Assembly (NCBI GenBank): GCA_964483405.1
Contig: CAZABC010000002.1
Span: 108,355 to 172,354 of the forward strand
DNA: 64,000 nucleotides
Direction of reading: 5' to 3'
DNA from: an uncultured Anaerolineaceae bacterium
Lineage (GTDB): Bacteria > Chloroflexota > Limnocylindria > Limnocylindrales > CSP1-4
Made by a program: the position numbers and the translations under genes. Every line of letters begins with the position of its first letter. Within the stretch, counting starts at the first letter, position 1. This document shows, piece by piece, positions 8,305 through 57,103 of the stretch. The notes under the pieces were generated by a model that saw only the letters and a program-made list of their open reading frames with translations, was not told the origin of the DNA and searched no databases.

Positions 8305-8727
8305 TCAGGCGCGCCAGCGGTTGGCGTTCCGCAGGCGACGGGCCTGCGACTGGAGCATCCGGTACATGACCCGCGGATGGGCGACGAGGAAGGCCTCGAC
8401 CGCCGGCCCGCCGAGGACGAGCGCCCGGACCGGCCGGAGGGCGACCACGTCGGCGGTCGGCGGCTCGCCGAGGAGGATCGACACCTCGCCGAAGAACTCG
8501 CCCCGGCCGAGCCTGGCCCGCTCCTCCCCGTCGACGAGGACCGAGCACTCGCCGTCGAGGATGACGTAGAAGCCCGAGCCGGTGAGGCCCTGGCGGAGGA
8601 TCCGCTCGCCGTCGGGGAACCAGACTTCCTCGAACTGGCCGGCGACCGCCTGTAGCTGCGGCGTCTGGAGATCCGCGAACATCGCGAACCCGGCGATCGT
8701 GTCGACGATCTCGTCGCGACCCGCCAT
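8305..8727 (-). CDS. Stand-alone cyclic nucleotide-binding domain protein (variant phosphate-binding cassette)
   Basis: ILRQGLTGSGFYVILDG...GEFFGEVSILLGEPPTADV; 140 aa; no HTH; GGAGG RBS. Confidence 0.85.
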   Translation of the reverse strand: MAGRDEIVDTIAGFAMFADLQTPQLQAVAGQFEEVWFPDGERILRQGLTGSGFYVILDGECSVLVDGEERARLGRGEFFGEVSILLGEPPTADVVALRPVRALVLGGPAVEAFLVAHPRVMYRMLQSQARRLRNANRWRA

Positions 8728-8875
8728 CGGCCCTCCCTCTCCACCGCGGGGCTCGGGGTCCGCGATGAGCCGCGATGGTACACCCGCGCCTTCGGGCCGC
8801 GGAAGGACCCCGGTCGCCTTGACGCCCGTCGGTCCGGCGCGCACGATGCGCGGCACGCAGGGAGGGTACCGGTCC

Positions 8876-9298
8876 ATGCCAAGCGGTCCGCACGACGAGG
8901 CGCTCCGGTCGGTCCCGCTGTTCGCCGGCGCGGAGCCCGACGACCTCGGCGCCATCGCCGCCATCGCCGCCGAGGTCGAGTTCCCGGCGGGCCGCGTCAT
9001 CGTCCGCCAGGGCGACCCGGCGAACGGCCTCTTCCTGATCGTCAGCGGCGGGGTCCACGTCGTCTCCGACGGCGAGACGGTCGCCTCGCTCGGGCCGGGG
9101 GAGGTCTTCGGCGAGCTCGCGGTCCTCGATCGCGGCCCGCGGGTCGCGTCGGTCGTCGCCGACTCGCCGACGCGCTGCCTCGCGGTCGCGGCCTGGGACG
9201 CCGAGCGGCTCCTCCTCGAGCGCCCAACGCTCGCGGTCGCCGTCGCCCGGACCCTCGCCGTCCGCCTCCGGAAGCGCGCGGAGGACCATCACCACTGA
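8876..9298 (+). CDS. Stand-alone cyclic nucleotide-binding domain protein (canonical cassette)
   Basis: IVRQGDPANGLFLIVSG...GEVFGELAVLDRGPRVASV; 140 aa; GGAGG RBS. Confidence 0.88.
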   Translation: MPSGPHDEALRSVPLFAGAEPDDLGAIAAIAAEVEFPAGRVIVRQGDPANGLFLIVSGGVHVVSDGETVASLGPGEVFGELAVLDRGPRVASVVADSPTRCLAVAAWDAERLLLERPTLAVAVARTLAVRLRKRAEDHHH

Positions 9299-43298: not shown

Positions 43299-44156
43299 CT
43301 ACGCCTCCTCGAGCTCGTCGGGCTCCTCGACGAACGCCTCGTCGCTCGTCTCCTCGGGCGGCAGGACGCGCTCGAGATCCTCGATCTCCTCGTCCTCCTC
43401 GTCGTCCTCGAGGTCGTCCTCGAGGTCCATCTCCTCGCGGACGAGGGTGCCCTTGGTGTACGGCCGCAGGTCGGTCGACTTGGCCGCGGTCGGGAAGCTG
43501 ACCTTGCCGTAGTTGCGCGGGTCCTGGAAGACCTCGCGGATGATGATCCGGACGTCCTCGCTGCCGAGCGAGGTCACCCCGGCGGCGTACTTGTTGCCGT
43601 CGGCGATGAGCTTGAGCAGCCGGGCGGCGACCCGCGGCTCGACGGCGCCGATCCGGACGCCGTTGCTGAACGCGATGAGGCGGTTGCGCTCGGGGGTCAG
43701 CTCGACATAGTCACCCGGGTTGACCTGGGCGAGCAGGGCCGGCGTGGCGAGGTCGACGAGGTGGGCGAAGCCGGTCTTGCCGGTCTCCTCGACGAAGATG
43801 CTGACCGGCGCCTTGCTGCCGGGGTTGGCCGGCACCGTCTTCTCGCCGGCCTCGACGAGGAGCATCCGGAGCCGGTCGATGTTCCGCTCGGCGATCCGGT
43901 TCGTCGGGTCGAGGGCGAGCGCGGTCTGGTAGTGCTCGCGGGCCGCCCCGAGCTCGCCGAGCTCCCAGAGGGCCTTGGCGAGTCGGTTCTCGGCCTCGGC
44001 GTCGGGTCCGAGCTCGAGGAGGCGGCGGTTGGTCTCGGCGGCGCCCGACCAGTCGGCGGCGCTCGCGGCCGCGATCGCCTGCTCGGCGAGCTGGCGCTTG
44101 AGGCGCACGGTGTTGGCGGGACCGGACGACTGGGGCTCGAGATCGGAGAAGGTCAA
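43299..44156 (-). CDS. TPR-containing protein with a possible HIRAN-like beta domain and a very acidic tail
   Basis: AENRLAKALWELG...ALALDPTNRIAERN (TPR); GDYVEL...IGAV...AARLLKLIADGNKYAAGV; D/E-rich C-terminus. TTG start after AAAGGA. Confidence 0.75.
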   Translation of the reverse strand: MTFSDLEPQSSGPANTVRLKRQLAEQAIAAASAADWSGAAETNRRLLELGPDAEAENRLAKALWELGELGAAREHYQTALALDPTNRIAERNIDRLRMLLVEAGEKTVPANPGSKAPVSIFVEETGKTGFAHLVDLATPALLAQVNPGDYVELTPERNRLIAFSNGVRIGAVEPRVAARLLKLIADGNKYAAGVTSLGSEDVRIIIREVFQDPRNYGKVSFPTAAKSTDLRPYTKGTLVREEMDLEDDLEDDEEDEEIEDLERVLPPEETSDEAFVEEPDELEEA

Positions 44157-44237
44157 GGGAGGGTGTCCTTTCGGCGCGACGATCGACCCGCCTGGCGGCG
44201 GCACGGCGGAGCCGGCGGCCGGGATGGGGGCCGAGTG

Positions 44238-44282: not shown

Positions 44283-45548
44283 TCAGTGGACCTCGGGCTC
44301 CTGGAGCGGGAGGACCATCGCCGCGAGCGTGACCAGCAGGGCACCACCCGCGAGGATCCCGACGACGATGAGCCACTCGATGATCGTCGGCACGTACCAG
44401 TACGACGTCGCGAACGAGCCGACGGCTCCGCCGGTGTCGCCGACCGACACCCCCGGTGGGATCCCGACCGGCAGGTACGACAGGCCGTTGAGCAGCAGGT
44501 TCAGGCGGTGGACCCAGATCCCGACGATCACGATCCCGGCCGCCAGGGCGACCCAGCGCGGATCGGTCCGGAGACGGCGGACGACCAGGATCGCGAACGG
44601 GATGGCCAGCCCCACGAGCGCCTCGAACCAGAAGATCGGGGCGTACGGACCGACGAGGAGCCGATGGATGGCGTCCGCCTCTTCCGGCGCACCCGGGTAG
44701 GCCGCGGTGAGCATCTCGGCGAAGACGAAGAAGGCCTCGACCACGATGAACACCCCGAGCAGCCCACCGAGGAAGGCGACGAGGTCGTTCCCGAACCGGA
44801 CGACGCCGAACCTCCGGAAGGCGAGAGCCATGAGGATCACGAGCCCAAGACCCGAGACGAGCGCCGAGCTGATGAACATCGGGGCCATGATCGCCGAGTA
44901 CCAGAAGCCGCGGCTGATCTGCAGCCCGAAGATCCAGGCGGTGATCGAGTGGAGCAGGATCGCCGCCGGCAGGGCGACCCAGGCGAGCGCCCCGATGAGC
45001 CGCTGGTCACGGGCCGCCGCGCCGTCCGACGCCGACGTCCCGAAGGCGAGCCAGCTGCCGCGTCGGGCGAGGTCGGCCCGGGTGTAGAGCCAGACGTACG
45101 TCGCCGACATCCCCATGTAGATGAAGACGATCGCGATGTCCCAGATCATCGGCGAGGTCGGGTTCGGGTGCAGCAGGATGTTGAGGATGCGGTCCGGCCG
45201 TCCGAGGTCCGGGAGGATGAACGTCGCCGCGAGGATGATCGCGACGGTCGCCTCGAGGACCGCGACGCGGACGATCGGCTTGAAGATCGTCGCCCCGAAC
45301 AGCCGACCGGCCGACGCGACGATCAGGCCGCCGGCCGACAGGCCGACGAAGAACATGAAGAACAGGATGTACTGGCCCCACATGACGATGTTCGTCAGGC
45401 CGGTCACGACGAGGCCCTGCGAGAACTGGTAGAGCCAGGCCGCGACCCCGACGCCGATGGCGACGAGGAGGAGGAGCAGCCAGATCGCCAGGCCGCGGCG
45501 GATCGCGGGGCGTCGTGGGGTGGCTGCCGGGATGGCGCCAGCGCTCAT
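44283..45548 (-). CDS. NrfD/PsrC-type membrane anchor (quinol-interacting subunit)
   Basis: WGQYI..F.FFVGLSAGG, DLGRPDR, SPMIWD, ILLHSITAWIFG, WYSAIMAPMFISSAL; about 10 TMs. Confidence 0.9.
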   Translation of the reverse strand: MSAGAIPAATPRRPAIRRGLAIWLLLLLVAIGVGVAAWLYQFSQGLVVTGLTNIVMWGQYILFFMFFVGLSAGGLIVASAGRLFGATIFKPIVRVAVLEATVAIILAATFILPDLGRPDRILNILLHPNPTSPMIWDIAIVFIYMGMSATYVWLYTRADLARRGSWLAFGTSASDGAAARDQRLIGALAWVALPAAILLHSITAWIFGLQISRGFWYSAIMAPMFISSALVSGLGLVILMALAFRRFGVVRFGNDLVAFLGGLLGVFIVVEAFFVFAEMLTAAYPGAPEEADAIHRLLVGPYAPIFWFEALVGLAIPFAILVVRRLRTDPRWVALAAGIVIVGIWVHRLNLLLNGLSYLPVGIPPGVSVGDTGGAVGSFATSYWYVPTIIEWLIVVGILAGGALLVTLAAMVLPLQEPEVH

Positions 45549-46252
45549 AGCTCGTCCTTCCGCCGTGGGGGAAGGTAGGTCACCGATGGCCGGGTGCCGA
45601 GGGCCTCGAGGAGGACCTCGCCCTCTCGCTCGCGGATGAGGCGATTGACCCGGCTGTCCGGGTCGTTGAGATCGCCGAAGATCCGGGCCTGGGCCGGGCA
45701 GGACCAGACGCACGACGGGACCTGGCCCTCGGCGAGGCGGTGGACGCACATCGTGCACTTCTCGACCGTGCCGACCGGCCGGGCGGCGACCATCCCGAAC
45801 TCGATCGGGATCGGCTGGTCCTGCTGGCCCCAGTTGAAGGTCCTGACGCCGTAGGGGCAGGCGATCATGCAGTAGCGGCAGCCGATGCAGCGCTCGCTGT
45901 CCTGCATGACGATGCCGTCGTCGCGGTGATAGGTGGCCTGGACGGGGCAGACCTTGACGCACGGGGCGTTGCCGCAGTGCTGACAGGCCAGCGGCACCCA
46001 GTGCATCTCGGGCTCGCCGTGCTCGAGTCGTGGCGTGTCGAGCGCCTCGCCGTCGGTCAGGATCCGGTTCCACCAGTTCCCGATCGGGATCTGGTTCTCC
46101 GACTTGCAGATGACGGCGCACGACCAGCAGCCGATGCAGCGCTCGGTGTCGACGACCATGCCCCAGTGGGGTGCGTCAGTGTGGGGCTCGATCTCGCCCC
46201 AGGCCCGCGAGGCGGGCGGCAGGGCCTCGATCGGGGAGACCTTGTCAGGCAT
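45545..46252 (-). CDS. 4x[4Fe-4S] electron-transfer subunit (NrfC/PsrB/DmsB-type)
   Basis: CIGCWSCAVIC, CQHCGNAPCVKVCP, CIGCRYCMIACP, KCTMC...PSCVWSCP. Confidence 0.93.
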   Translation of the reverse strand: MPDKVSPIEALPPASRAWGEIEPHTDAPHWGMVVDTERCIGCWSCAVICKSENQIPIGNWWNRILTDGEALDTPRLEHGEPEMHWVPLACQHCGNAPCVKVCPVQATYHRDDGIVMQDSERCIGCRYCMIACPYGVRTFNWGQQDQPIPIEFGMVAARPVGTVEKCTMCVHRLAEGQVPSCVWSCPAQARIFGDLNDPDSRVNRLIREREGEVLLEALGTRPSVTYLPPRRKDEL

Positions 46253-48809
46253 CGGTCCCCTCCCCGGTCCGGCGGACCTCGACCCGGCAGTCCTTCCAGC
46301 CGGTCGACGGGCACCACATGTTCGGGACGTTGTGGATCTCGTGGATCGGGTTGACCGCCGACGAGGTCAGCTCGTTGACCCCCTTGCCCTTCCGGAACTG
46401 GCGCGGCCACCACCCTTCGTACAGGGTCGCGGCGCCCCGCCGGGCTCCCTCGGTGACGTGAGCCCAGCACTCGACCGTGCCCCGGGTGTTGAGGATCTCG
46501 ACGGTGTCGCCATCGGCGATCGACCGGGCGGCGGCGTCGTCGGGGTGGAGCTGGACGATCGGGCGCCCGCCGTGGATCTCCGCCAGCCAGGGGTTGTTCG
46601 CGTACGAGGAGTGGATCCGCCACTTCGAGTGCGGCGTCAGCAGGGTCAGCGGCCAGGTCGCGGGATCGTGGACCTCATCGTCCTTGGGCGGCAGGTAGGT
46701 CGGGACCGTCTCGCCGAGCTCGATGAAGCGGTCCTCCTCCTTGTAGAACTCGATGCGGCGGGTCGGGATGAACGCCGCCGTCGCCTCGAGTGGCGCCGGC
46801 AGCGAGCGTGGCGGGAACGGCTCGAGGCGCTCGATCTGGCCGAGGAACGGGATGTCCGGGTCGGGCACGTTGAGCCGGACCGGACCGGCCTTGAGCTGCT
46901 CGAGGGTGATCCCCTCGGTCGGTCCGCCGGGGCCGCCACCTGCCGCGAGGATCGCCTCGATCGCGGCCTCCTCGTCGAGGTCGAACCAGGCCGCGGCGGC
47001 CTCGGGGTCGATCCGGCGGACGAGCTCCTGCCACACCCAGAGCTCGGAGCGGGACTCGCCGACCGGGTCGATCGCTGGCTGCTGGAGCTGGAGGAACGGG
47101 TGGAGCGGCGTCGCCGTGAGGTCCCACTTCTCGTACCAGGTCGTCGCCGGCAGGACGATGTCGGCCCACTCGACGGTGTGGGTCCGCTGGTGATCGATGA
47201 CGACGATCAGGTCGAGCGCCGCCAGTGTCTCGTGGAAGTGGTTGACGTCCATCCCCTGGACGAACATGTTGGCGAAGGCGCAGACGAGGGCGTGCCAGCC
47301 GTTCTCCGGGTACGGAACGTCGGGATGCATCGTCGGCGTCCGACCGTGGGCGAAGTAGATGCTCGGGACGATCTTCGCCTTGATCTCGTGCTCGTTCCCG
47401 ACGTTGTACCAGGGCGCCGTGTTGACCCGGACCTTGTACTGGCCGACGTAGACCGAGAACCCTCCGCCGGACCGGCCGATGTTGCCGGTCAGGGCCGCCA
47501 GCAGGGCCAGCGCCCGGCCGGTCTGGTCACCGTGGAACCAGTGGTTCGAGCCACCGCCCATCAGGATTGCCGCGGGCTTGGTCGTCGCGTAGGCGCGGGC
47601 GATGGTCGTGATCCGGTCGGCGGGGATCTCGCAGACCTCGGCCGCCCGCTCCGGAGTCCAGCGCTCCACCTCGGCCCGGACCAGCGCGAAGCCTGGCGTG
47701 GCCGAGACCGTCGAGCCGTCCGTGAGCCGGAGGTCGTAGACGCCCGCGAGTGCCGATCGGACGCCCGGGCCGCCGAGCCGATCGGTCCCGACCTCGACGG
47801 GTCGACCGCGGACCTCGTCCCAGGCGACGAACGCCTCTGCGCCCGGGGTGGCCTGCGGCCCGACTCCCGCCAGCTCCGACCAGCGCAGTCGCCTGCCGGT
47901 GTCGAGGCTCACGAGCAGCGGGCCATCGGTGTAGGTCCGCATGAACGCCAGGTCGGCCAGGCCCTCGCCGAGGATGACGTTCGCCATCCCAAGCGCGAAC
48001 GCCGTATCGGTGCCGGGCCGGATCGCCAGCCAGGCGTCGGCCTTCGAGGCGGTCGGAGAGTAGTTCGGGTCGACGACGACGAGCTTCGCCCCCGCTTCGA
48101 TGGCGTCGAAGAGGAAGTGGACGTCGGGGATCCGGGTCTCGACCGGGTTGCTCCCGATCAGCAGGAGAAAGCGACTGTTCGCCCAGTCCTTCGCCTCGTG
48201 CTCTGCGTTCTGGACGCCGAAGGTGATCGGCATCCCCATCGGCAGGTCGCCGTTGAAGTCGAAGCTCGTGCCGTGGATCATCCCGAGGGTCGCGCAGGCC
48301 CGGTAGTTGGCGCCCTTCTGGATGTAGCCGGAGCCCGGGACCTGGTCGAAGACGTGGATCGAATCCCAGCCGTACGTTTCGCCGATCCGCTTCAACTCGG
48401 CCGCGATCGTGTCGAGGACCTCGTCCCAGCTGGCCTCCCGGAACTCGCCCGAACCACGAACCCCGGTCCGCACGAGCGGGGTCGTGATCCGATCCTCGCC
48501 GTAGATGTGGAGCTGGTAGCTGATCCCCTTCATGCACCCGCGGGGGTTGTATGCGCCGTCGGGATAGTCGGCGGCCTGCTGGACCTTGACGACCTTGCCG
48601 TCCCGGACGAAGGCGAGCTGGCCACAGCTGCCGGTGCAATTCGGCGAGCAGGTGGTCCGGACGACCTTGTCGACCGGCAGCGACGGCTCGATGTCGTAGT
48701 CTCGCCCGGCATGGACGGGCGGCGGGTCGAGGACCGGCAGCGATGCGCCGACCGCCGCGCCGGCGACGCCAGCCGCACCCTTGAGGAACGTCCGGCGATC
48801 AAGCGGCAT
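46245..48809 (-). CDS. Tat-exported Mo/W-bisPGD oxidoreductase catalytic subunit, DMSO reductase family, type II (Asp-ligand) like
   Basis: Tat signal MPLDRRTFLK; FS0 motif TCSPNCTGSC...NPRGCMKG; FNGDLP ligand region; GSNPVETRIPD; TPHSKWRIHS molybdopterin-dinucleotide domain. Confidence 0.9.
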   Translation of the reverse strand: MPLDRRTFLKGAAGVAGAAVGASLPVLDPPPVHAGRDYDIEPSLPVDKVVRTTCSPNCTGSCGQLAFVRDGKVVKVQQAADYPDGAYNPRGCMKGISYQLHIYGEDRITTPLVRTGVRGSGEFREASWDEVLDTIAAELKRIGETYGWDSIHVFDQVPGSGYIQKGANYRACATLGMIHGTSFDFNGDLPMGMPITFGVQNAEHEAKDWANSRFLLLIGSNPVETRIPDVHFLFDAIEAGAKLVVVDPNYSPTASKADAWLAIRPGTDTAFALGMANVILGEGLADLAFMRTYTDGPLLVSLDTGRRLRWSELAGVGPQATPGAEAFVAWDEVRGRPVEVGTDRLGGPGVRSALAGVYDLRLTDGSTVSATPGFALVRAEVERWTPERAAEVCEIPADRITTIARAYATTKPAAILMGGGSNHWFHGDQTGRALALLAALTGNIGRSGGGFSVYVGQYKVRVNTAPWYNVGNEHEIKAKIVPSIYFAHGRTPTMHPDVPYPENGWHALVCAFANMFVQGMDVNHFHETLAALDLIVVIDHQRTHTVEWADIVLPATTWYEKWDLTATPLHPFLQLQQPAIDPVGESRSELWVWQELVRRIDPEAAAAWFDLDEEAAIEAILAAGGGPGGPTEGITLEQLKAGPVRLNVPDPDIPFLGQIERLEPFPPRSLPAPLEATAAFIPTRRIEFYKEEDRFIELGETVPTYLPPKDDEVHDPATWPLTLLTPHSKWRIHSSYANNPWLAEIHGGRPIVQLHPDDAAARSIADGDTVEILNTRGTVECWAHVTEGARRGAATLYEGWWPRQFRKGKGVNELTSSAVNPIHEIHNVPNMWCPSTGWKDCRVEVRRTGEGTDA

Positions 48810-49032
48810 CGCGGACCACCCTGCGCTCCATCGGGCAGCGCGCGTCGAGCATCGTGTGCGACAGGTCGCCGCAGCGAGCGCAGCGCGTCGCGCTCGAACC
48901 CGAGGCCGACGGTCGGGCGGCGTCGACGGCCGACCGGACCAGACGAGCGGCCGAGACCGCCACGGCCCCGGCGACAGCGCCGATCGGAGCCAGAACGGCG
49001 ATGCCGAGGAGGTCGCGGCGCGTGAGGGGCAT
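48799..49032 (-). CDS. Small twin-arginine protein with a C-x2-C-x4-H-x6-C motif
   Basis: MPLTRRDLLG, hydrophobic stretch, CARCGDLSHTMLDARC. GAGGTG RBS; the stop overlaps the start of the molybdoenzyme gene. Confidence 0.75.
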   Translation of the reverse strand: MPLTRRDLLGIAVLAPIGAVAGAVAVSAARLVRSAVDAARPSASGSSATRCARCGDLSHTMLDARCPMERRVVRDAA

Positions 49033-49092
49033 GGGATCACCTCGCCATCTAGTAGTCAGGTGGTATGTATTTCATCCCTCCCGCGCCGGTCG

Positions 49093-49165: not shown

Positions 49166-49432
49166 ATGTCGCCACTCGATCCTGCCCTCGAGGCAGACCT
49201 CGCCGCCTGGCTCGTCCGGTACGACGCCGTCCTCCCCGAGCCAGGATCGGACAGCCTCGGTGGCGACGAGCGCGAGCTCATCCTGGACGTCGCCCGGATC
49301 GCCGCCCACCGCGGGGTCCGCGCCGCGGCGCCGGTGGCGACGTACCTCGCTGGGATGGCGGCCGCCGGACTGCCCGCCGACGAGCGGGTCGCGCGCCTGC
49401 GGGCACTGGTCGCGGCCCTCGACACCGACTGA
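49166..49432 (+). CDS. DUF6457-like small protein (often associated with MobA/molybdenum cofactor genes)
   Basis: ELILDVARIAAHRGVRAAAPVATYLAG; GGAGGA RBS; TACGAT -10 at 49133. Confidence 0.7.
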   Translation: MSPLDPALEADLAAWLVRYDAVLPEPGSDSLGGDERELILDVARIAAHRGVRAAAPVATYLAGMAAAGLPADERVARLRALVAALDTD

Positions 49433-49453: not shown

Positions 49454-50257
49454 TCAGCCATCCAGACGCAGGTTCAGCCCGATCACGAGGACGCCGAGCA
49501 GCGCGAGCAGGACGACCTCCCACAGCCAGCGCGGGTCCCGGCGTCGCGCCGGGGCGGTCCCGTGGAGCGTGTCCCAGAGGAAGAAGACGAGGGTCAGGAG
49601 CGCCGGTCCGACGAGGAGCGGCAGCGCGAGGGCCCGCGCCGCGCCGGCCGCGATGGCGACGACGACGGCATAGGTCACCGCCGACAGGGCCGCGTCCCGG
49701 ACGCTCGTGACGCGCAGCGCGACGACCCGATAGCCGAGCAGGAACGCCACCAGGGCGTCGACGGCGGCGAGGACCGCGACCCCCCCGCCGGTCAGGGGCT
49801 CGGGGCTCTCGGCGCCGGGGAGGACGAGGGCGCCGGGCACGGTCGCCGCGACCCCGGTGAAGGCGACGAAGGCGAGGATGAGCGCGAGCGACCGGACCCG
49901 GGCCCGGTCCTCCGGTCCAGGCAGGCCGACGGCCGAGACAAGACGGGTCTCGAGCGCCACGCTGCGCTCGACGAGGAGCCAGGTCAGCGCGAGCGCCGGC
50001 ACGAGGAAGAGGCCGACGGGAACGAGGCGGATCGCGCCGGCCGCGCCGACCGCGGCGACCGCCGGCAGGAGGAGCGACTCGATCGGGACGCCGCGGGGCT
50101 CGCCCTCGCCGATGACCTGGAGCGTCGCGAGCGCGACCCCGACGAGGAGGAGCGCGACCGAGGCCCACAGGAGCGGGCCATCGGCGACGCGGGTCAGCCC
50201 GACGATGCACGTGGCGAGCAGGGCGAGGTCGCGGCGTCCGACGCGGCGGGGATCCAT
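49454..50257 (-). CDS. Hypothetical polytopic membrane protein
   Basis: About eight hydrophobic segments; TACCAT 8 nt upstream of the ATG. Confidence 0.7.
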   Translation of the reverse strand: MDPRRVGRRDLALLATCIVGLTRVADGPLLWASVALLLVGVALATLQVIGEGEPRGVPIESLLLPAVAAVGAAGAIRLVPVGLFLVPALALTWLLVERSVALETRLVSAVGLPGPEDRARVRSLALILAFVAFTGVAATVPGALVLPGAESPEPLTGGGVAVLAAVDALVAFLLGYRVVALRVTSVRDAALSAVTYAVVVAIAAGAARALALPLLVGPALLTLVFFLWDTLHGTAPARRRDPRWLWEVVLLALLGVLVIGLNLRLDG

Positions 50258-53622: not shown

Positions 53623-55083
53623 TCAGCCGGCGATGACCCGGTCCCGACCGGCCTTCTTCGCCCGGTACAGCGCCTGGTCGGCCCGCTCCACCAGCCGGTC
53701 GATCGGTTCGTCGGGCACCTTCTGGACGGCGACGCCGACCGACACGGTCACGCGCGACACGCCGAAGGGCGCGAGGTCGAGCCGACCGACCGCGCCGCGG
53801 GCGCGCTCGCCGATCTCCGTCGCCACCTCGGCGGTCGGGTTGCGGAGCAGGACGACGAACTCCTCGCCCCCGTAGCGAGCCGGCACGTCGTCGTCGCGGA
53901 CGGCGGTCGCGATCGCCTGGGCGACGGCCCGCAGGACCTCGTCACCGGTCGCGTGGCCGTAGCGGTCGTTCAGCCGCTTGAAGTGGTCGATGTCGACCAT
54001 CATCACGCCGACCGCGTCTCGCGACCGACGCCGCCGGGCAAGGAGGCCGCAGAACTCGTCGAAGTAGCGACGGTTCGGCAGTCCGGTCAGCGCGTCGGTG
54101 CTCGCGCGGAGCTCGGCGGCCCGGTAGCCCTCCGCGCGGCCGAGGGCGATCGAGGCCTCTCCGGCCGCCTCGTCGAGGAAGCGGCGGGTCGCCGCCGGCC
54201 ACGGGCCGACCGTGCGCCTGGACAGGACGAGCGCGCCGACCACCGTCGCGTCGACGACGATCGGCGCCGAGAGCGTGTCGCGCAGCCCGTAGATCGACGC
54301 GACGCGGTCCGCCAGCCGGTCGGCGAGGCGGGCCGCTGCGACGGGGTCTCGCCCGCTGCCGGCCGGTCGCGCATGCCCGGGCCCACCGCGCCCTGCGCCG
54401 GCCCCGAGCGGTGGCCGTCCACCCGGCGCCCTCGCGGTGTCCGGCGATGCGGCGGCCTGAGCCGAGCGGTCCGTCGCCGGCGCGGCGCCCGCCGCCGTCC
54501 CGTCCGAGGTCGCGCCGGTCGCCGCCGCCGGCCAGGTCACCGCCGGTGCCGGCATGTCGACCTCGACATCGACCGGCACGGGCGCCCGCCGGCGGCCGGC
54601 GAGCTCGGCCGGGGTGAGTGGCGCCTCGATGTCCGTCAGCGGCAGGTTCGTCGTCGAGCTGGCCACGCCGGGGCGGGCGCTGACGAGCATCGCCTCGAGC
54701 CGGGCCGGGTCCGTCCGGCGCCGGACGACGACGACGTGATCGGCCTCGACCGTCGCCGCGAGCTCGCGGGCGATGGCTCCGACGATCGCGTCGGCCGACA
54801 GCGAGCGCGAGAGCCCGCGGACGAGCCGGGCGGTGCGCTCGGCCTCGCCCCGTCGGCGCGCCTCGAGCGCCCCGACCGCCCGGCGGTTCGCGACGGCGGC
54901 CGACCCGGCGACACCGATGAGCGCCAGGGCGAGCAGGTCTAGCGCGCTGGCGCCGCCCGAGAGACGGGCGAGGGTCAGGAGCCCCAGGACGGCGAGCGAG
55001 CCGACGAAGACCCACCAGCTCCGGCGGATCAGCAGGTCCTCCGGGCCGGTCGGGTCGTCGGGTTCGAGCGGGGGCGCCTCCAC
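53623..55083 (-). CDS. Membrane-anchored GAF-like plus GGDEF diguanylate cyclase
   Basis: Two N-terminal TMs, TDALTGLPNRRYF, DIDHFKRLNDRYGH, RDDD I-site, ARYGGEEF. Confidence 0.92.
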   Translation of the reverse strand: MEAPPLEPDDPTGPEDLLIRRSWWVFVGSLAVLGLLTLARLSGGASALDLLALALIGVAGSAAVANRRAVGALEARRRGEAERTARLVRGLSRSLSADAIVGAIARELAATVEADHVVVVRRRTDPARLEAMLVSARPGVASSTTNLPLTDIEAPLTPAELAGRRRAPVPVDVEVDMPAPAVTWPAAATGATSDGTAAGAAPATDRSAQAAASPDTARAPGGRPPLGAGAGRGGPGHARPAGSGRDPVAAARLADRLADRVASIYGLRDTLSAPIVVDATVVGALVLSRRTVGPWPAATRRFLDEAAGEASIALGRAEGYRAAELRASTDALTGLPNRRYFDEFCGLLARRRRSRDAVGVMMVDIDHFKRLNDRYGHATGDEVLRAVAQAIATAVRDDDVPARYGGEEFVVLLRNPTAEVATEIGERARGAVGRLDLAPFGVSRVTVSVGVAVQKVPDEPIDRLVERADQALYRAKKAGRDRVIAG

Positions 55084-55180
55084 GTCGGGGTCAAGGATGC
55101 GCCCGGCGCGGGGTGGCGTCCACTCGGGCCGACCGGTACCTCCGGCGACGGGCGACCGGTACTTCGGTACCGGGCGTGGC

Positions 55181-57103
55181 TCAGGCAGGCCCGGTCGCCG
55201 GTGCGACCACCCGGTCCCGGTCCCTCGTCGCCCGCCCGCGACGCGCCGTCGCCGCCGGTCGCTCGATCCCGTGGCCGCCCGTCCGCTTCACCCCGTACAG
55301 ACCGGCGTCGGCCGTGGCGATGAGCGCGGTCGCGGTGAGGCCGTCGTCGGGGCAGGTCGCGACGCCGATCGAGACGCCGATCGGCACGGCGCCGCGGCCC
55401 TCGGGCTGGAATGCCCGGTCGGCGAAGGCTCCGACGATGCGCTCGCCGACCCGGGCGGCGGCTGCAGCGTCGGTGTCGGGCAGGATGACCGCGAACTCGT
55501 CGCCGCCGTAGCGCGCCGGGACGTCGGACGCCCGGAGCGTCGAGCGGACGACATCGGCGACCCAGGTGAGGACGCGGTCGCCGACGATGTGGCCCAACGT
55601 GTCGTTGACGGCCTTGAACTCGTCCAGATCGAGCATCAGGACGCTGACCGGCGCGCGCGTCCGGCCGGCGCGGAGCAGCTCCTCGCCGAGGCGCTCGTGG
55701 AAGTAGCGGTGGTTGAAGAAGCCGGTCAGCGGATCGCGGTCGGCGAGATCGCGCGCCCGCTCGTACAGGATCGCGTTCTCGAGCGCGATCGCCGCCTCGT
55801 TCGCCATCGTCCGGACGAGACCGAGCTTGGGGCCCTCGAGGTCCAGCCGCTCGGTCCCGTAGAGCTCGACGAGCCCGATCGACTCGTCCTTGGCGACGAG
55901 GGGCAGCATGATCATCGTCCGCTGGCTGTGCCGGGCGAGATACGCCCGCTCGTGCGGGTCGGCCGCCGGGTCGTCGACCTGGACGACGACCTCCGCCTTG
56001 GTCTCGAGGACGCGGCGGGTCTCCGGATACTCGCCCAGGCCGAAGGCGTCCTGGATGTTCTCGGGCGACTCGACCGGGTAGTAGCCAACGGTCAGGACCC
56101 GGTCGCCCGCCCGGTCCCAGGTCGAGATCCCGCACTCGTCGGCGCCGACCGCCTCGGCGAGGTGGCGGGCCATCAACTCCCCGACCTGGCGCGGGTCGAG
56201 GCTCTTCGAGAGCGACGAGCTCATGTCGAGCAGGCTGCGGAGCTCGGCGGCGAGGCCCGACGTGCGGGTGACCAGCCGCGCCGTCTCGAGCGCCGTCGCC
56301 GCCTGGTCGGCGAGGATCGTCAGGAGCCGCAGGTCGTCCGGCTGGAACTGGTGGAGGCCGAGCTTGGAGAGCGTGATGACCCCGACGACCCGGTCGTCGT
56401 AGCGCATCGGCACGACGAGCATCGACTCGTCGACGTCCTCGGTACCCGGGATCGTCTGGCCGCGTGGATCGGTGTTCGCGTCGTCGATGAGCAGCGGGAC
56501 GCCGTGGAGGGCGACCCAGCCGGTGAAGCCCTGGCCGACCGTCGTCCTGAGCAGCTCGAGGTCGACGTCGTCGTACGCCCCGACCCGACCCTCGAAGGCG
56601 ATCGGGACGAGCTGGTCGGGCGGCTCGAGGGTGTAGACACGGGCGTTGTGGTAGTCGAGGATCCGGCCGGTCTCCTCGACGATCGCCCGGCCGACCGCCT
56701 CGACCGAGGGCGCCCGGCTCATCCGGGCGGACGCGGCCTGGAGGACCGCGAGGTGGCCGGTCTTGGCGTGGACCCGCCGGGCACCGAGTCGCCAGGCGAT
56801 GAACATCGCGCCGGCGATCGCCAGCGGCATGTCGAGGGTCAGGTCGAACTGCGGGTACTGGATGTGGTCGATGATCCAGGCGGCGGCCCCGATCCCCATC
56901 AGCACGATGCCACCGACGAGCCAGGCGTCCTTGATCAGCTCGAGGGCCCGCAGCAGGCCGGAGCGCCAGACGATCGCCCGCCCACGGGCACGGGCACGCT
57001 CCGCGCCCGAGGCGTGACCGGGCGGTGTCGCCGGCACGACCGCGGGCGCGACGGTCGCTCCTCCCGGGCTCGGCGCCGCGGGGCGGTCGATCTGCGCGCT
57101 CAT
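55181..57103 (-). CDS. Membrane-anchored GAF-GAF-GGDEF diguanylate cyclase
   Basis: Two TMs, GAF domains (ESMLVVPMRY...VGVITL; IMLPLVAK...IGLVEL), DPLTGFFNHRYF, RASD I-site, ARYGGDEF. Confidence 0.92.
   Translation of the reverse strand: MSAQIDRPAAPSPGGATVAPAVVPATPPGHASGAERARARGRAIVWRSGLLRALELIKDAWLVGGIVLMGIGAAAWIIDHIQYPQFDLTLDMPLAIAGAMFIAWRLGARRVHAKTGHLAVLQAASARMSRAPSVEAVGRAIVEETGRILDYHNARVYTLEPPDQLVPIAFEGRVGAYDDVDLELLRTTVGQGFTGWVALHGVPLLIDDANTDPRGQTIPGTEDVDESMLVVPMRYDDRVVGVITLSKLGLHQFQPDDLRLLTILADQAATALETARLVTRTSGLAAELRSLLDMSSSLSKSLDPRQVGELMARHLAEAVGADECGISTWDRAGDRVLTVGYYPVESPENIQDAFGLGEYPETRRVLETKAEVVVQVDDPAADPHERAYLARHSQRTMIMLPLVAKDESIGLVELYGTERLDLEGPKLGLVRTMANEAAIALENAILYERARDLADRDPLTGFFNHRYFHERLGEELLRAGRTRAPVSVLMLDLDEFKAVNDTLGHIVGDRVLTWVADVVRSTLRASDVPARYGGDEFAVILPDTDAAAAARVGERIVGAFADRAFQPEGRGAVPIGVSIGVATCPDDGLTATALIATADAGLYGVKRTGGHGIERPAATARRGRATRDRDRVVAPATGPA

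Follow-up and report, generated by a model that had tools for sequence, protein, structure and literature searches.

At positions 48799..49032 (minus strand) of the window, by which we mean the whole 64,000-nt stretch of Chloroflexota DNA analysed here, a 77-codon reading frame stands at the head of a molybdoenzyme operon. Is this frame a gene and, if so, what would so small a protein, with a twin-arginine motif and a set of Cys and His residues, do for the enzyme encoded next to it?

Coding status of gene X

The frame, called here gene X (translation MPLTRRDLLGIAVLAPIGAVAGAVAVSAARLVRSAVDAARPSASGSSATRCARCGDLSHTMLDARCPMERRVVRDAA), starts with ATG and specifies a 77-aa precursor that combines a Tat-type signal with a CCHC knuckle. 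As a sequence-only reading of this DNA had pointed out, X has its own ribosome-binding site, the Shine-Dalgarno-like GAGGTG (49038..49043, minus strand) located 5 nt upstream of the ATG, and its end overlaps the start of the downstream catalytic gene, gene A. The overlap (48799..48809, minus strand; ATGCCGCTTGA) is 11 nt long and runs from the A start codon ATG (48809..48807) to the X stop codon TGA (48799..48801), which falls 8 nt inside gene A. Junctions between X and A in many other loci are either overlaps of 1–4 nt or gaps of at most 5 nt. The co-translation that the same reading had drawn from the overlap is plausible in view of the overlap and of the recurrence of tight junctions; we hold translational coupling of X to A to be plausible and no firmer.

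The existence of an ORF of this size is by itself uninformative, since the local G+C content is 74% and 87 ORFs of at least 40 aa overlap the same 14-kb stretch. What raises X above a chance ORF is its codon-position composition, the gene calls made elsewhere and the confinement of its motif to one genomic position. The three codon positions have G+C fractions of 0.74/0.65/0.86 in the X frame and of 0.65/0.87/0.75 in the 5′ extension of the MopB ORF that competes with it; the GC3 of X is of the coding type. On three metagenome contigs, the X ORF was predicted by independent gene callers. We found the strict motif C..CG...H.xL.{0,4}CP exactly once each in 67 of the 84 sequences examined, always directly upstream of the MopB gene and on the same strand, and a six-frame reading of 775 kb showed no further occurrence. 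The dN/dS ratio of X, computed for close pairs only, is 0.18–0.35; distant pairs were left out because synonymous sites saturate at the extreme GC3 and their ratios are uninformative. Thus, X is a real gene under purifying selection. A search for expression evidence found the locus in DNA metagenomes only and in no RNA run. We also observed that one X homologue is mislabelled in its annotation as ribosomal protein S14.

A short ORF that lies upstream of A and overlaps its start codon might also be a regulatory leader, tuning the expression of A by its own translation, or a conserved non-functional remnant. We regard this as highly improbable: the constrained residues, namely RR, RP-G-S, C, C, G, H, M, L, C and P, are distributed along the full length of the peptide in two phyla, close-pair dN/dS is well below 1, GC3 is of the coding type, and a leader peptide needs no Tat signal plus metal site.

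The partner enzyme and its linkage to X

Gene A (46245..48809, minus strand) encodes an 854-aa MopB catalytic subunit of the Nar/Pcr type (type II DMSO reductase family), as assigned from NCBIfam, Pfam and PDB matches. Pfam domains were found in A; against NCBIfam TIGR03479 it scores 517 bits, a value below the cut-off, and against formate dehydrogenase-N alpha 123 bits. The nearest solved structure is perchlorate reductase PcrA (4ydd, E = 9e-111), whose Asp170 aligns with Asp188 of A. The protein carries a Tat signal of its own, MPLDRRTFLKG, and an FS0 motif C-x3-C-x3-C. Gene B (45545..46252, minus strand) encodes a 235-aa four-cluster FeS subunit without signal peptide, similar to DsrO, TtrB and ArrB by NCBIfam and Pfam, and as a conserved gene follows A in 78 of 85 loci. 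Gene C (44283..45548, minus strand) encodes a 421-aa NrfD-type membrane anchor (Pfam NrfD, E = 4e-55; gene call on L001) conserved in 73 of the 85. Judged by its sequences, the partner enzyme is an uncharacterised hybrid in which a Nar/Pcr-type A and a DsrO-like B are combined with an NrfD anchor. Lineages with this enzyme include Limnocylindria, Acidimicrobiia, Thermoleophilia and Nitriliruptoria.

Wherever a homologue of A from Chloroflexota or Actinomycetota has upstream DNA, this DNA carries a related small ORF directly in front of the gene, and three Bacillota homologues of A have no X-like ORF in this position. X orthologues were found in about 70 loci. In the reverse search, starting from X, gene A was directly downstream in 18 of 18 loci (2 of 2 contigs and 16 of 16 metagenome loci); the metagenome scan used a subfamily alignment. 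A word-indexed homology search with X alone returned its own cluster only, and the relatives came from an exhaustive search. X-A-B-C is the sole conserved gene set around the loci. X is linked exclusively to one clade of MopB enzymes, which settles a question that the sequence-only reading had itself put forward, namely whether the homologues are tied to molybdoenzyme operons.

Conservation of the twin arginines and of the Cys and His residues had likewise been named beforehand as a test, and these residues turned out to be conserved across the family. Among 51 sequences, R40, G45, C51, C54, G55, L62, C66 and P67 are invariant, and R5, R6, P41, S47, H59 and M61 are at least 90% conserved; the positions R40, P41, G45 and S47 make an RP-x3-G-x-S motif (48892..48915, minus strand).

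Which subunit might X touch? X is kept where subunit C has fallen to 35–44% identity while A and B stand at 63–70%, a weak argument for A/B rather than C as the partner of X. Comparison of X-bearing lineages with three X-less sequences revealed no indels of five or more residues in A; subunit B, compared with the same number of X-less sequences, does show differences, namely an N-terminal extension of 21 aa and the lack of a ∼19-aa loop. We treat the differences in B as a lead only.

Predicted export signal and metal site of X

Residues 1–38 of X (48919..49032, minus strand) are predicted to make a Tat signal peptide with a TRRDLL n-region, an uncharged h-region and a basic c-region ending with V36-D37-A38. 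The sequence-only reading had described a 77-aa twin-arginine protein with a hydrophobic helix, and the ORF does contain the motif T4-R5-R6-D7-L8-L9 followed by 22 uncharged residues. Across the X family this uncharged stretch has a median length of 15 residues, and an Arg-rich linker comes after it. The 22-residue stretch of the window X is long enough for a membrane anchor.

Profile comparison by hhalign matched residues 1–19 of X with the Tat signal of MopB subunits (pairwise E = 1e-4), and a search with the X profile against PDB matched, non-significantly, the Tat signal peptides of NapA and MelC1. Matches to the Tat models, which are very short, are sparse: X itself had none at E ≤ 0.1 to PF10518 or TIGR01409, and weak matches were observed in 3 of 51 family members for PF10518 and in 1 of 51 for TIGR01409. 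The residues preceding RP fit the −3/−1 rule across the family, (A/V/I)-x-(A/G/S)|x-R-P. Counted from RP, position −4 is A/G/S/T/V in 83% of sequences and position −2 in 74%, charged residues make 2% at both, and position −3 is free.

From these features we infer Tat export of X and its cleavage to a ∼39-residue peptide. The predicted mature peptide, residues 39–77 (48802..48918, minus strand; ∼4 kDa), would consist of A-RP-x4-G-S-S, the knuckle and a C-terminal R-V-V tail, with the cleavage site placed from the family pattern. The AF2 model of X draws residues 5–39 as one continuous helix, so X may possibly be an uncleaved membrane anchor. A lipoprotein reading was rejected, as the signal does not end with a Cys.

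The export signal bears on one of the three functions that the sequence-only reading had offered, a maturation or targeting factor that replaces a NarJ/TorD-type chaperone and is not a permanent subunit. Acting on A or A-B ahead of Tat transport or in its course, such a factor might, for example, hold the apo-enzyme, proofread export, or engage the translocase jointly by means of a second signal peptide. Nar/Pcr-type enzymes normally have a dedicated chaperone (NarJ, PcrD, SerD, DdhD, EbdD), and a survey of 80 loci found no conserved gene of the NarJ/TorD family at a distance of up to ∼4 kb from the cassette. Moreover, X comes first in the operon, is plausibly coupled in translation to A, and has a precedent, by analogy, in MelC1 and tyrosinase, where the gene of a small Tat-signal helper lies upstream of that of a metalloenzyme. 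However, chaperones of the NarJ/TorD/DmsD class are cytoplasmic, all-helical, about 200 aa long and without signal, and X matches none of their Pfam or NCBIfam models. The replacement fits less well because X has an export signal and a conserved signal-peptidase-type site, the latter suggesting that functional X resides beyond the cell membrane. The genome could also encode a chaperone elsewhere, and the X-less Bacillota relatives, too, have no nearby chaperone gene in their conserved set. We consider a chaperone-type role unlikely.

Downstream of the signal, X has the Ser-rich segment R40-P41-SASGSSATR and then a CCHC zinc-knuckle-like motif, C51-A-R-C54-G55-x3-H59-x-M61-L62-x3-C66-P67 (48832..48882, minus strand), supported by conservation and by sub-threshold profile matches. 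Both the linker and the pattern C51-x2-C54-x4-H59-x6-C66 had been described correctly before, as had the absence of a haem site; a haem c site was rejected, the motif being CxxCG with no CxxCH. In comparison with the canonical knuckle the window X has a two-residue insertion between His and the last Cys. This spacing varies in the family: it is x4, the canonical length, in ten actinobacterial loci (e.g. CAVCGSTDHAMLRCP), x5 in one locus and x6 in most.

The best PDB profile matches of X, all sub-threshold, are CCHC knuckles (RBBP6, TUT4/7, retroviral NC and ZCCHC8), and in the alignments the four ligands, the Gly and the Pro are all in register, Gly55 and Pro67 of X aligning with CG and CP of the RBBP6, TUT7 and Gag knuckles. 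PF15288 (zf-CCHC_6) gives the window X 16.2 bits, below its cut-off of 22, and matches 19 of 51 family members at E ≤ 0.1 (best E = 6e-4, sub-threshold); PF00098 matches 2 of 51 with E ≥ 0.04. The AF2 model, which contains no metal, has a mean pLDDT of 88 and values of ∼74–89 over the knuckle. A Foldseek search of this model against PDB gave nothing significant (best E = 4.7); its small matches were zinc knuckles and zinc-binding ribosomal proteins. Metal binding by X, and likewise the identity of the metal, is read from the ligand pattern and is to be taken as probable. We rejected the idea that X arose as a partial copy of the 5′ part of gene A, with its Tat signal and FS0 Cys motif, since hhalign aligns signal residues 1–19 only and finds no relation between the X knuckle and the FS0 motif of A.

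Could the Cys3His site be a redox centre, with Fe in rubredoxin-like fashion or with a small Fe-S cluster, that extends or branches the electron chain? CxxCG is also the knuckle style of rubredoxin and of MopB FS0, and Cys3His ligation of a cluster exists, NarG FS0 being an example. Tat export, moreover, is typical of Fe-S proteins (PMC10924467). Still, four ligands within 16 residues, with canonical knuckle spacing in part of the family, would fit a mononuclear structural site better; the X profile has no similarity to the ferredoxin, HiPIP or rubredoxin families; hhalign links the knuckle to no FS0 motif of A; and the chain from A (FS0) through B (four clusters) to C is already complete. We think an additional redox centre quite unlikely.

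The same residues might instead serve an extracytoplasmic carrier or thiol-redox helper that binds what the enzyme consumes or produces, some soft metalloid or chalcogen compound, and delivers it to the active site, or that exchanges disulfides, in analogy to Sud with polysulfide reductase or MerP with mercury. A CxxC together with another Cys and a His would suit soft ligands well, reductases of chalcogens and metalloids are members of the enzyme family, and the sources name this enzyme clade generically only, with no substrate given. On the other side, Gly55, Leu62 and Pro67 are invariant and Met61 is at least 90% conserved, which looks like the fold determinants of a permanently metal-loaded knuckle, and the ligand spacing is fixed in the family apart from the x4–x6 variation between His and Cys. 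Chloroflexota and Actinomycetota are generally regarded as single-membrane, and such cells would lose a 4-kDa carrier that is free to diffuse. No similarity to known carriers was detected in Pfam or NCBIfam. We assign a small probability to a carrier role.

Proposed role and comparison with known systems

Among the three functions offered by the sequence-only reading, an extra metal-binding subunit appears to fit best, and a regulator of Tat traffic has no specific support. We give about even chances to the proposal that X, a real gene, encodes a Tat-exported knuckle peptide acting as a fourth subunit or assembly partner of A-B-C. X and A would be translated from one mRNA, coupled by the overlapping stop and start codons. 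The knuckle would fold around a metal ion, most likely Zn2+, while in the cytoplasm, and this folding, as proposed, would create the need for the folded-protein Tat pathway. X would then cross to the outer face of the membrane by this pathway and be cut after (A/V/I)-x-(A/G/S). The resulting ∼4-kDa peptide would remain bound to the exported A-B module, which the NrfD subunit C would anchor, since with a single membrane a free peptide of this size would be lost unless bound. The bound peptide might be a structural fourth subunit or an assembly clamp. Because A has its own Tat signal and the Bacillota enzymes do without X, X is not universally required by the enzyme architecture.

A bolder version of this proposal, which we put forward tentatively and think rather doubtful as a whole, is that X represents a new class of proteins: a ∼39-residue holo-metallopeptide, among the smallest natural Tat passengers, with an extracellular CCHC knuckle of the eukaryote/retrovirus style, that is the obligatory fourth subunit of an unrecognised X-A-B-C family of Nar-type, quinone-linked molybdoenzymes found widely among Chloroflexota and Actinomycetota of soil and freshwater, and that assumes a NarJ-type assembly role.

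Small proteins are routinely missed or filed as ‘hypothetical’, and X is an example: a strictly conserved companion of a respiratory-type molybdoenzyme that is uncharacterised and is common in abundant, mostly uncultured soil and freshwater lineages. Attempts to express or purify this enzyme, or to assign its substrate, without co-expressed X would probably fail or give an incomplete complex. If the proposal is true, the zinc-knuckle fold would extend to the bacterial cell exterior, and X would be a very small, tractable natural substrate for studies of Tat recognition of a folded, metal-loaded passenger.

X belongs to no described protein family, as the sequence-only reading, knowing no characterised family with this pattern, had suspected. 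No Pfam or NCBIfam model covers X beyond sub-threshold matches, the PDB sequence set has no chain resembling it, and a literature search for such a protein found nothing. The model TIGR02811 (‘Formate dehydrogenase region TAT target’) describes proteins that, like X, are ∼70 aa long, carry a twin-arginine signal and are encoded beside MopB-family enzymes; their function is unassigned, with a subunit or accessory factor suspected. This model matches 2 of 51 X family members weakly (best E = 2.6e-4) and does not match the window X at E ≤ 0.1. X differs in having the Cys/His knuckle, the conserved region of TIGR02811 being presumably Tyr/His-rich, and in having a partner of the Nar/Pcr type rather than a formate dehydrogenase.

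The MelC1 ‘caddie’ of Streptomyces tyrosinase is likewise a small Tat-signal protein whose gene lies immediately upstream of that of its metalloenzyme partner; it handles metal and passes Tat together with tyrosinase. The X family matches MelC1 weakly through the signal peptide and has no sequence relation to it outside the signal. MelC1, however, is a copper chaperone of ∼130 aa and carries the only signal of the pair, whereas A has a signal of its own and X is far smaller. NarJ/TorD/DmsD and NapD are operon-encoded dedicated helpers of Tat-dependent molybdoenzymes, and the X operon has no such helper; they differ from X in being cytoplasmic, in lacking a signal peptide, and in fold and size. 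The A-B-C module itself mixes elements of the MopB-FeS-NrfD enzymes PsrABC, TtrABC and ArrABC with elements of the type II enzymes Nar, Pcr and Ebd. We know of no characterised complex of either kind with a Tat-exported knuckle peptide.

The closest likeness of the mature peptide is to the CCHC zinc knuckle (PF00098, PF15288; retroviral nucleocapsid, Lin28, TUT4/7, RBBP6, ZCCHC8). X shares with it the order Cys-Cys-His-Cys, the Gly after the second Cys and the Pro after the last one, and part of the family has the pattern C-x2-C-x4-H-x4-C. The window X differs in having H-x6-C in place of H-x4-C, with scores below the gathering thresholds, and the aromatic residues that contact nucleic acid in known knuckles correspond to Ala52 and Met61/Leu62. 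Known CCHC knuckles are intracellular binders of nucleic acids or proteins in eukaryotes and retroelements, whereas X is bacterial, stands behind an export signal and is predicted to be extracytoplasmic.

A conserved small gene upstream of a MopB subunit

The 77-aa protein X is encoded directly upstream of A, the MopB catalytic subunit gene, which is followed by genes for an FeS subunit (B) and an NrfD-type membrane subunit (C). The X ORF (48799..49032, − strand) begins with ATG and has 77 codons (product MPLTRRDLLGIAVLAPIGAVAGAVAVSAARLVRSAVDAARPSASGSSATRCARCGDLSHTMLDARCPMERRVVRDAA). The sequence-only reading had described an RR motif, a hydrophobic stretch, a Ser-rich segment, a metal motif, a ribosome-binding site and a stop/start overlap, and had excluded a haem site. 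We found all of these elements in the ORF: T-R-R-D-L-L followed by the hydrophobic and then the Ser-rich segment; C51-x2-C54-x4-H59-x6-C66, in which CxxCG rules out a haem c site; a Shine-Dalgarno-like GAGGTG, read from the sequence 5 nt upstream of the ATG; and a TGA 8 nt within A, giving an overlap of 11 nt (ATGCCGCTTGA).

A 931-aa GTG-initiated ORF (46245..49040, −) joins A to a 77-codon 5′ extension running across X in another frame. It is an artefact of high G+C: codon-position G+C favours the X frame (0.74/0.65/0.86 vs 0.65/0.87/0.75 for the extension) and independent gene callers called X and A as separate genes on three metagenome contigs. Annotation that favours the longest reading frame could lose X to this extension. 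At 74% G+C the mere presence of a 77-codon ORF means nothing; therefore, the case for X rests on conservation.

With A as bait, 80 loci were fetched from a species-representative genome collection, mostly from Chloroflexota (Limnocylindria and relatives) and Actinomycetota MAGs with 62–83% identity to A, plus three from Bacillota (43–45%). Wherever a Chloroflexota or Actinomycetota locus includes DNA upstream of A, a small RR-containing ORF ends at or near the start of A; the three Bacillota loci have none there. Of the 84 sequences examined, 67 contain the strict motif C..CG...H.xL.{0,4}CP, each in exactly one copy and always shortly before A on the same strand. A six-frame reading of the 775 kb gave no further occurrence; X-bearing loci outside the 67 carry near variants. 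An exhaustive phmmer search with X yielded 51 clusters (50% identity, E < 1e-3), 50 of them proteins of 58–141 aa. The sole non-family match, P0025, a 1012-aa eukaryotic repeat protein with zf-CCHC_6-type knuckles (KCRDCGAFGHTARSKRCP), was rejected as a cross-hit. Two small proteins picked among the weaker matches are both encoded directly upstream of a MopB gene. When an X subfamily profile was run on metagenomes, A directly followed X in 16/16 retrieved loci; in one of these (L101, 1026..1715) the similarity to A ends after 48 residues (from the Tat signal to VVRTTC), the sequence diverging thereafter; either this metagenome contig is chimeric or the gene is what a deletion has left.

R40, G45, C51, C54, G55, L62, C66 and P67 are invariant in the 51-sequence X alignment, and R5, R6, P41, S47, H59 and M61 are at least 90% conserved. 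The sequence-only reading had staked itself on conservation of the Cys/His residues and the RR motif and on linkage to molybdoenzymes. Both checks were run and neither refuted it: all of these residues are invariant or at least 90% conserved in the 51 sequences, and X homologues lie upstream of A whether sampled via A or via X. Overall, X diverges faster than A (40–69% identity), with dN/dS of 0.18–0.35 in close pairs (distant pairs, saturated owing to extreme GC3, were left out). Set beside these values, the reading of X as a mere leader ORF has, in our judgement, only the slightest probability.

The partner enzyme and its surroundings

A (854 aa; 46245..48809, −) carries its own Tat signal, MPLDRRTFLKG. 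The solved structures nearest to it are perchlorate reductase PcrA (4ydd, E = 9e-111), NarG, ethylbenzene dehydrogenase and NxrA, and among NCBIfam models it scores highest on the type II DMSO reductase alpha subunit (517 bits, far under the cut-off). Asp188 of A aligns to PcrA Asp170, which we take to be the Mo ligand, and FS0, the Cys motif in the N-terminal part of A, is C-x3-C-x3-C. In contrast to characterised type II enzymes, the electron-transfer partners of A are a DsrO/TtrB-like four-cluster FeS subunit (B; 45545..46252, −) and an NrfD-type subunit (C; 44283..45548, −). Database names for the three are generic only. Judged by these sequence comparisons, A-B-C (44283..48809, −) is an uncharacterised hybrid: its catalytic subunit is of the Nar/Pcr type (type II DMSO reductase family), its FeS subunit resembles DsrO/TtrB and its anchor is an NrfD protein. 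We also observed that B exceeds the NCBIfam DsrO equivalog cut-off (216 vs 200 bits) despite sitting in a MopB operon.

No gene beyond X-A-B-C is conserved around the cassette in related loci, including any for a haem-b gamma subunit or a NarJ-type delta protein. X might serve as a maturation or targeting factor in place of the NarJ-type chaperone that is missing here, a reading that we consider unlikely.

In X-bearing lineages, B has a 21-aa N-terminal extension (VSPIEALPPASRAWGEIEPHT) and is without a ∼19-aa loop of the X-less Bacillota homologues (L079, L082 and L083); between the same groups, A shows no group-specific indel of at least 5 residues. The extension and missing loop offer a lead to a possible docking site for X, drawn from three X-less sequences only. 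X is kept in Actinomycetota loci (L035-L041, L044, L048-L054, L057-L061, L066, L068, L072, L074, L075 and L084) in which A and B share 63–70% identity with those of the window and C only 35–44%; there, C either has been replaced or evolves much faster. This persistence is a weak hint that X partners with A/B.

Two ORFs flank the cassette: the one downstream of C (43299..44204, −) encodes a 301-aa protein that ends in an acidic tail and has weak precomputed TPR matches only, and the upstream one (49454..50257, −) a 267-aa Ala/Leu-rich, probably membrane protein. Neither has a Pfam family at E ≤ 1e-6, and in other genomes neither is conserved beside the cassette. A pair of neighbouring GAF-GGDEF (diguanylate cyclase-type) genes (486 and 640 aa; 53623..57103, −), some 5 kb away from the operon, likewise shows no conservation with it. 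Divergent from X is a DUF6457 gene (88 aa; 49166..49432, +). About 8 of the 80 related loci have a homologue of it no more than some 4 kb from the cassette, at varying positions. In L005, the homologue adjoins a MobA-like ORF (8532..9155), which hints at a link of DUF6457 to molybdenum cofactor handling.

Predicted export and the knuckle-like module

Members of the X family have an n-region (S/T)-R-R-x-(L/F)-L, an uncharged h-region (median 15 residues, 22 in the window, usually with a Pro), an Arg-rich amphipathic linker of 13–18 residues and a tail of 32–39 residues, x-R-P-x3-G-(S/T)-S-x3-C-A-x-C-G-x3-H-x-M-L-x(0-3)-C-P-x3-4-V-x. The hhalign match of the X profile to A subunits is confined to residues 1–19 and their Tat signal, with nothing else in the A N-terminus; thus X is not a duplicated FS0 motif. 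The residues before R-P (A/V/I/T at −4, A/G/S/T at −2, charged in 2% at both, −3 free) read as obeying the signal-peptidase −3/−1 rule. The predicted cleavage of the window's X is V36-D37-A38|A39-R40-P41, which would yield a mature peptide of 39 residues; the signal, at 38 residues, would have a length typical of Tat. Alternatively, X may keep the signal uncleaved as a membrane anchor; its 22-residue h-region and the single continuous helix (residues 5–39) of the AF2 model are in line with this.

That model, built from the family alignment (mean pLDDT 88), has a coil-type C-terminal module (pLDDT about 74–89). Foldseek gave no significant match, the small matches being a Lin28 knuckle chain and zinc-binding ribosomal proteins. 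CCHC zinc knuckles are the only recurrent sequence-level resemblance. PF15288 matches 19/51 family members, all under the gathering score (16.2 bits for the window's X; cut-off 22). The family profile against all PDB sequences gave as top matches the RBBP6, TUT7/TUT4, retroviral Gag/NC, ZCCHC8 and Lin28 knuckles (E 0.01 or weaker), with the four ligands, Gly and Pro in register, and its N-terminal part picked up the NapA and MelC1 Tat signals. The canonical C-x2-C-x4-H-x4-C spacing is exact in ten actinobacterial loci; the window's X has two extra residues ahead of the last Cys. The impression that X belongs to no characterised family was borne out: we found no covering Pfam or NCBIfam family, no X-like solved structure in the PDB profile search and no description in the literature. 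Homologues are named ‘hypothetical’ and once ‘ribosomal protein S14’ (P0056, 85 aa, JGI), which is a wrong name acquired through the zinc motif.

Proposed role and known likenesses

We see about an even chance that X is an exported structural metal-knuckle subunit or assembly clamp. Its 16-residue CCHC module would be unable to fold without metal, and the Tat signal makes sense if metal is inserted in the cytoplasm before the folded holo-peptide is exported. Chloroflexota and Actinomycetota are generally regarded as single-membrane, and a free 4-kDa peptide would diffuse away from such a cell. This expected loss and the strict, translationally coupled association with A argue that mature X would stay bound to the exported A-B module. 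The same four ligands could instead form a redox-active Fe or Fe-S site, or X could carry a substrate, metalloid or thiol; both seem improbable to us, and equally so.

From its sequence we rate X as a small accessory protein that bears a Tat signal and serves a MopB enzyme, and as a new, unnamed family with an unusual predicted extracytoplasmic CCHC knuckle. X will probably be required in any work on this enzyme, which is widespread and uncharacterised. Membership tests failed, on model scores or on the partner enzyme, for each of the known systems that X resembles: in anatomy it is similar to the zinc knuckle and to the uncharacterised TIGR02811 ‘formate dehydrogenase region TAT target’, and in operon logic it is like MelC1 with tyrosinase.
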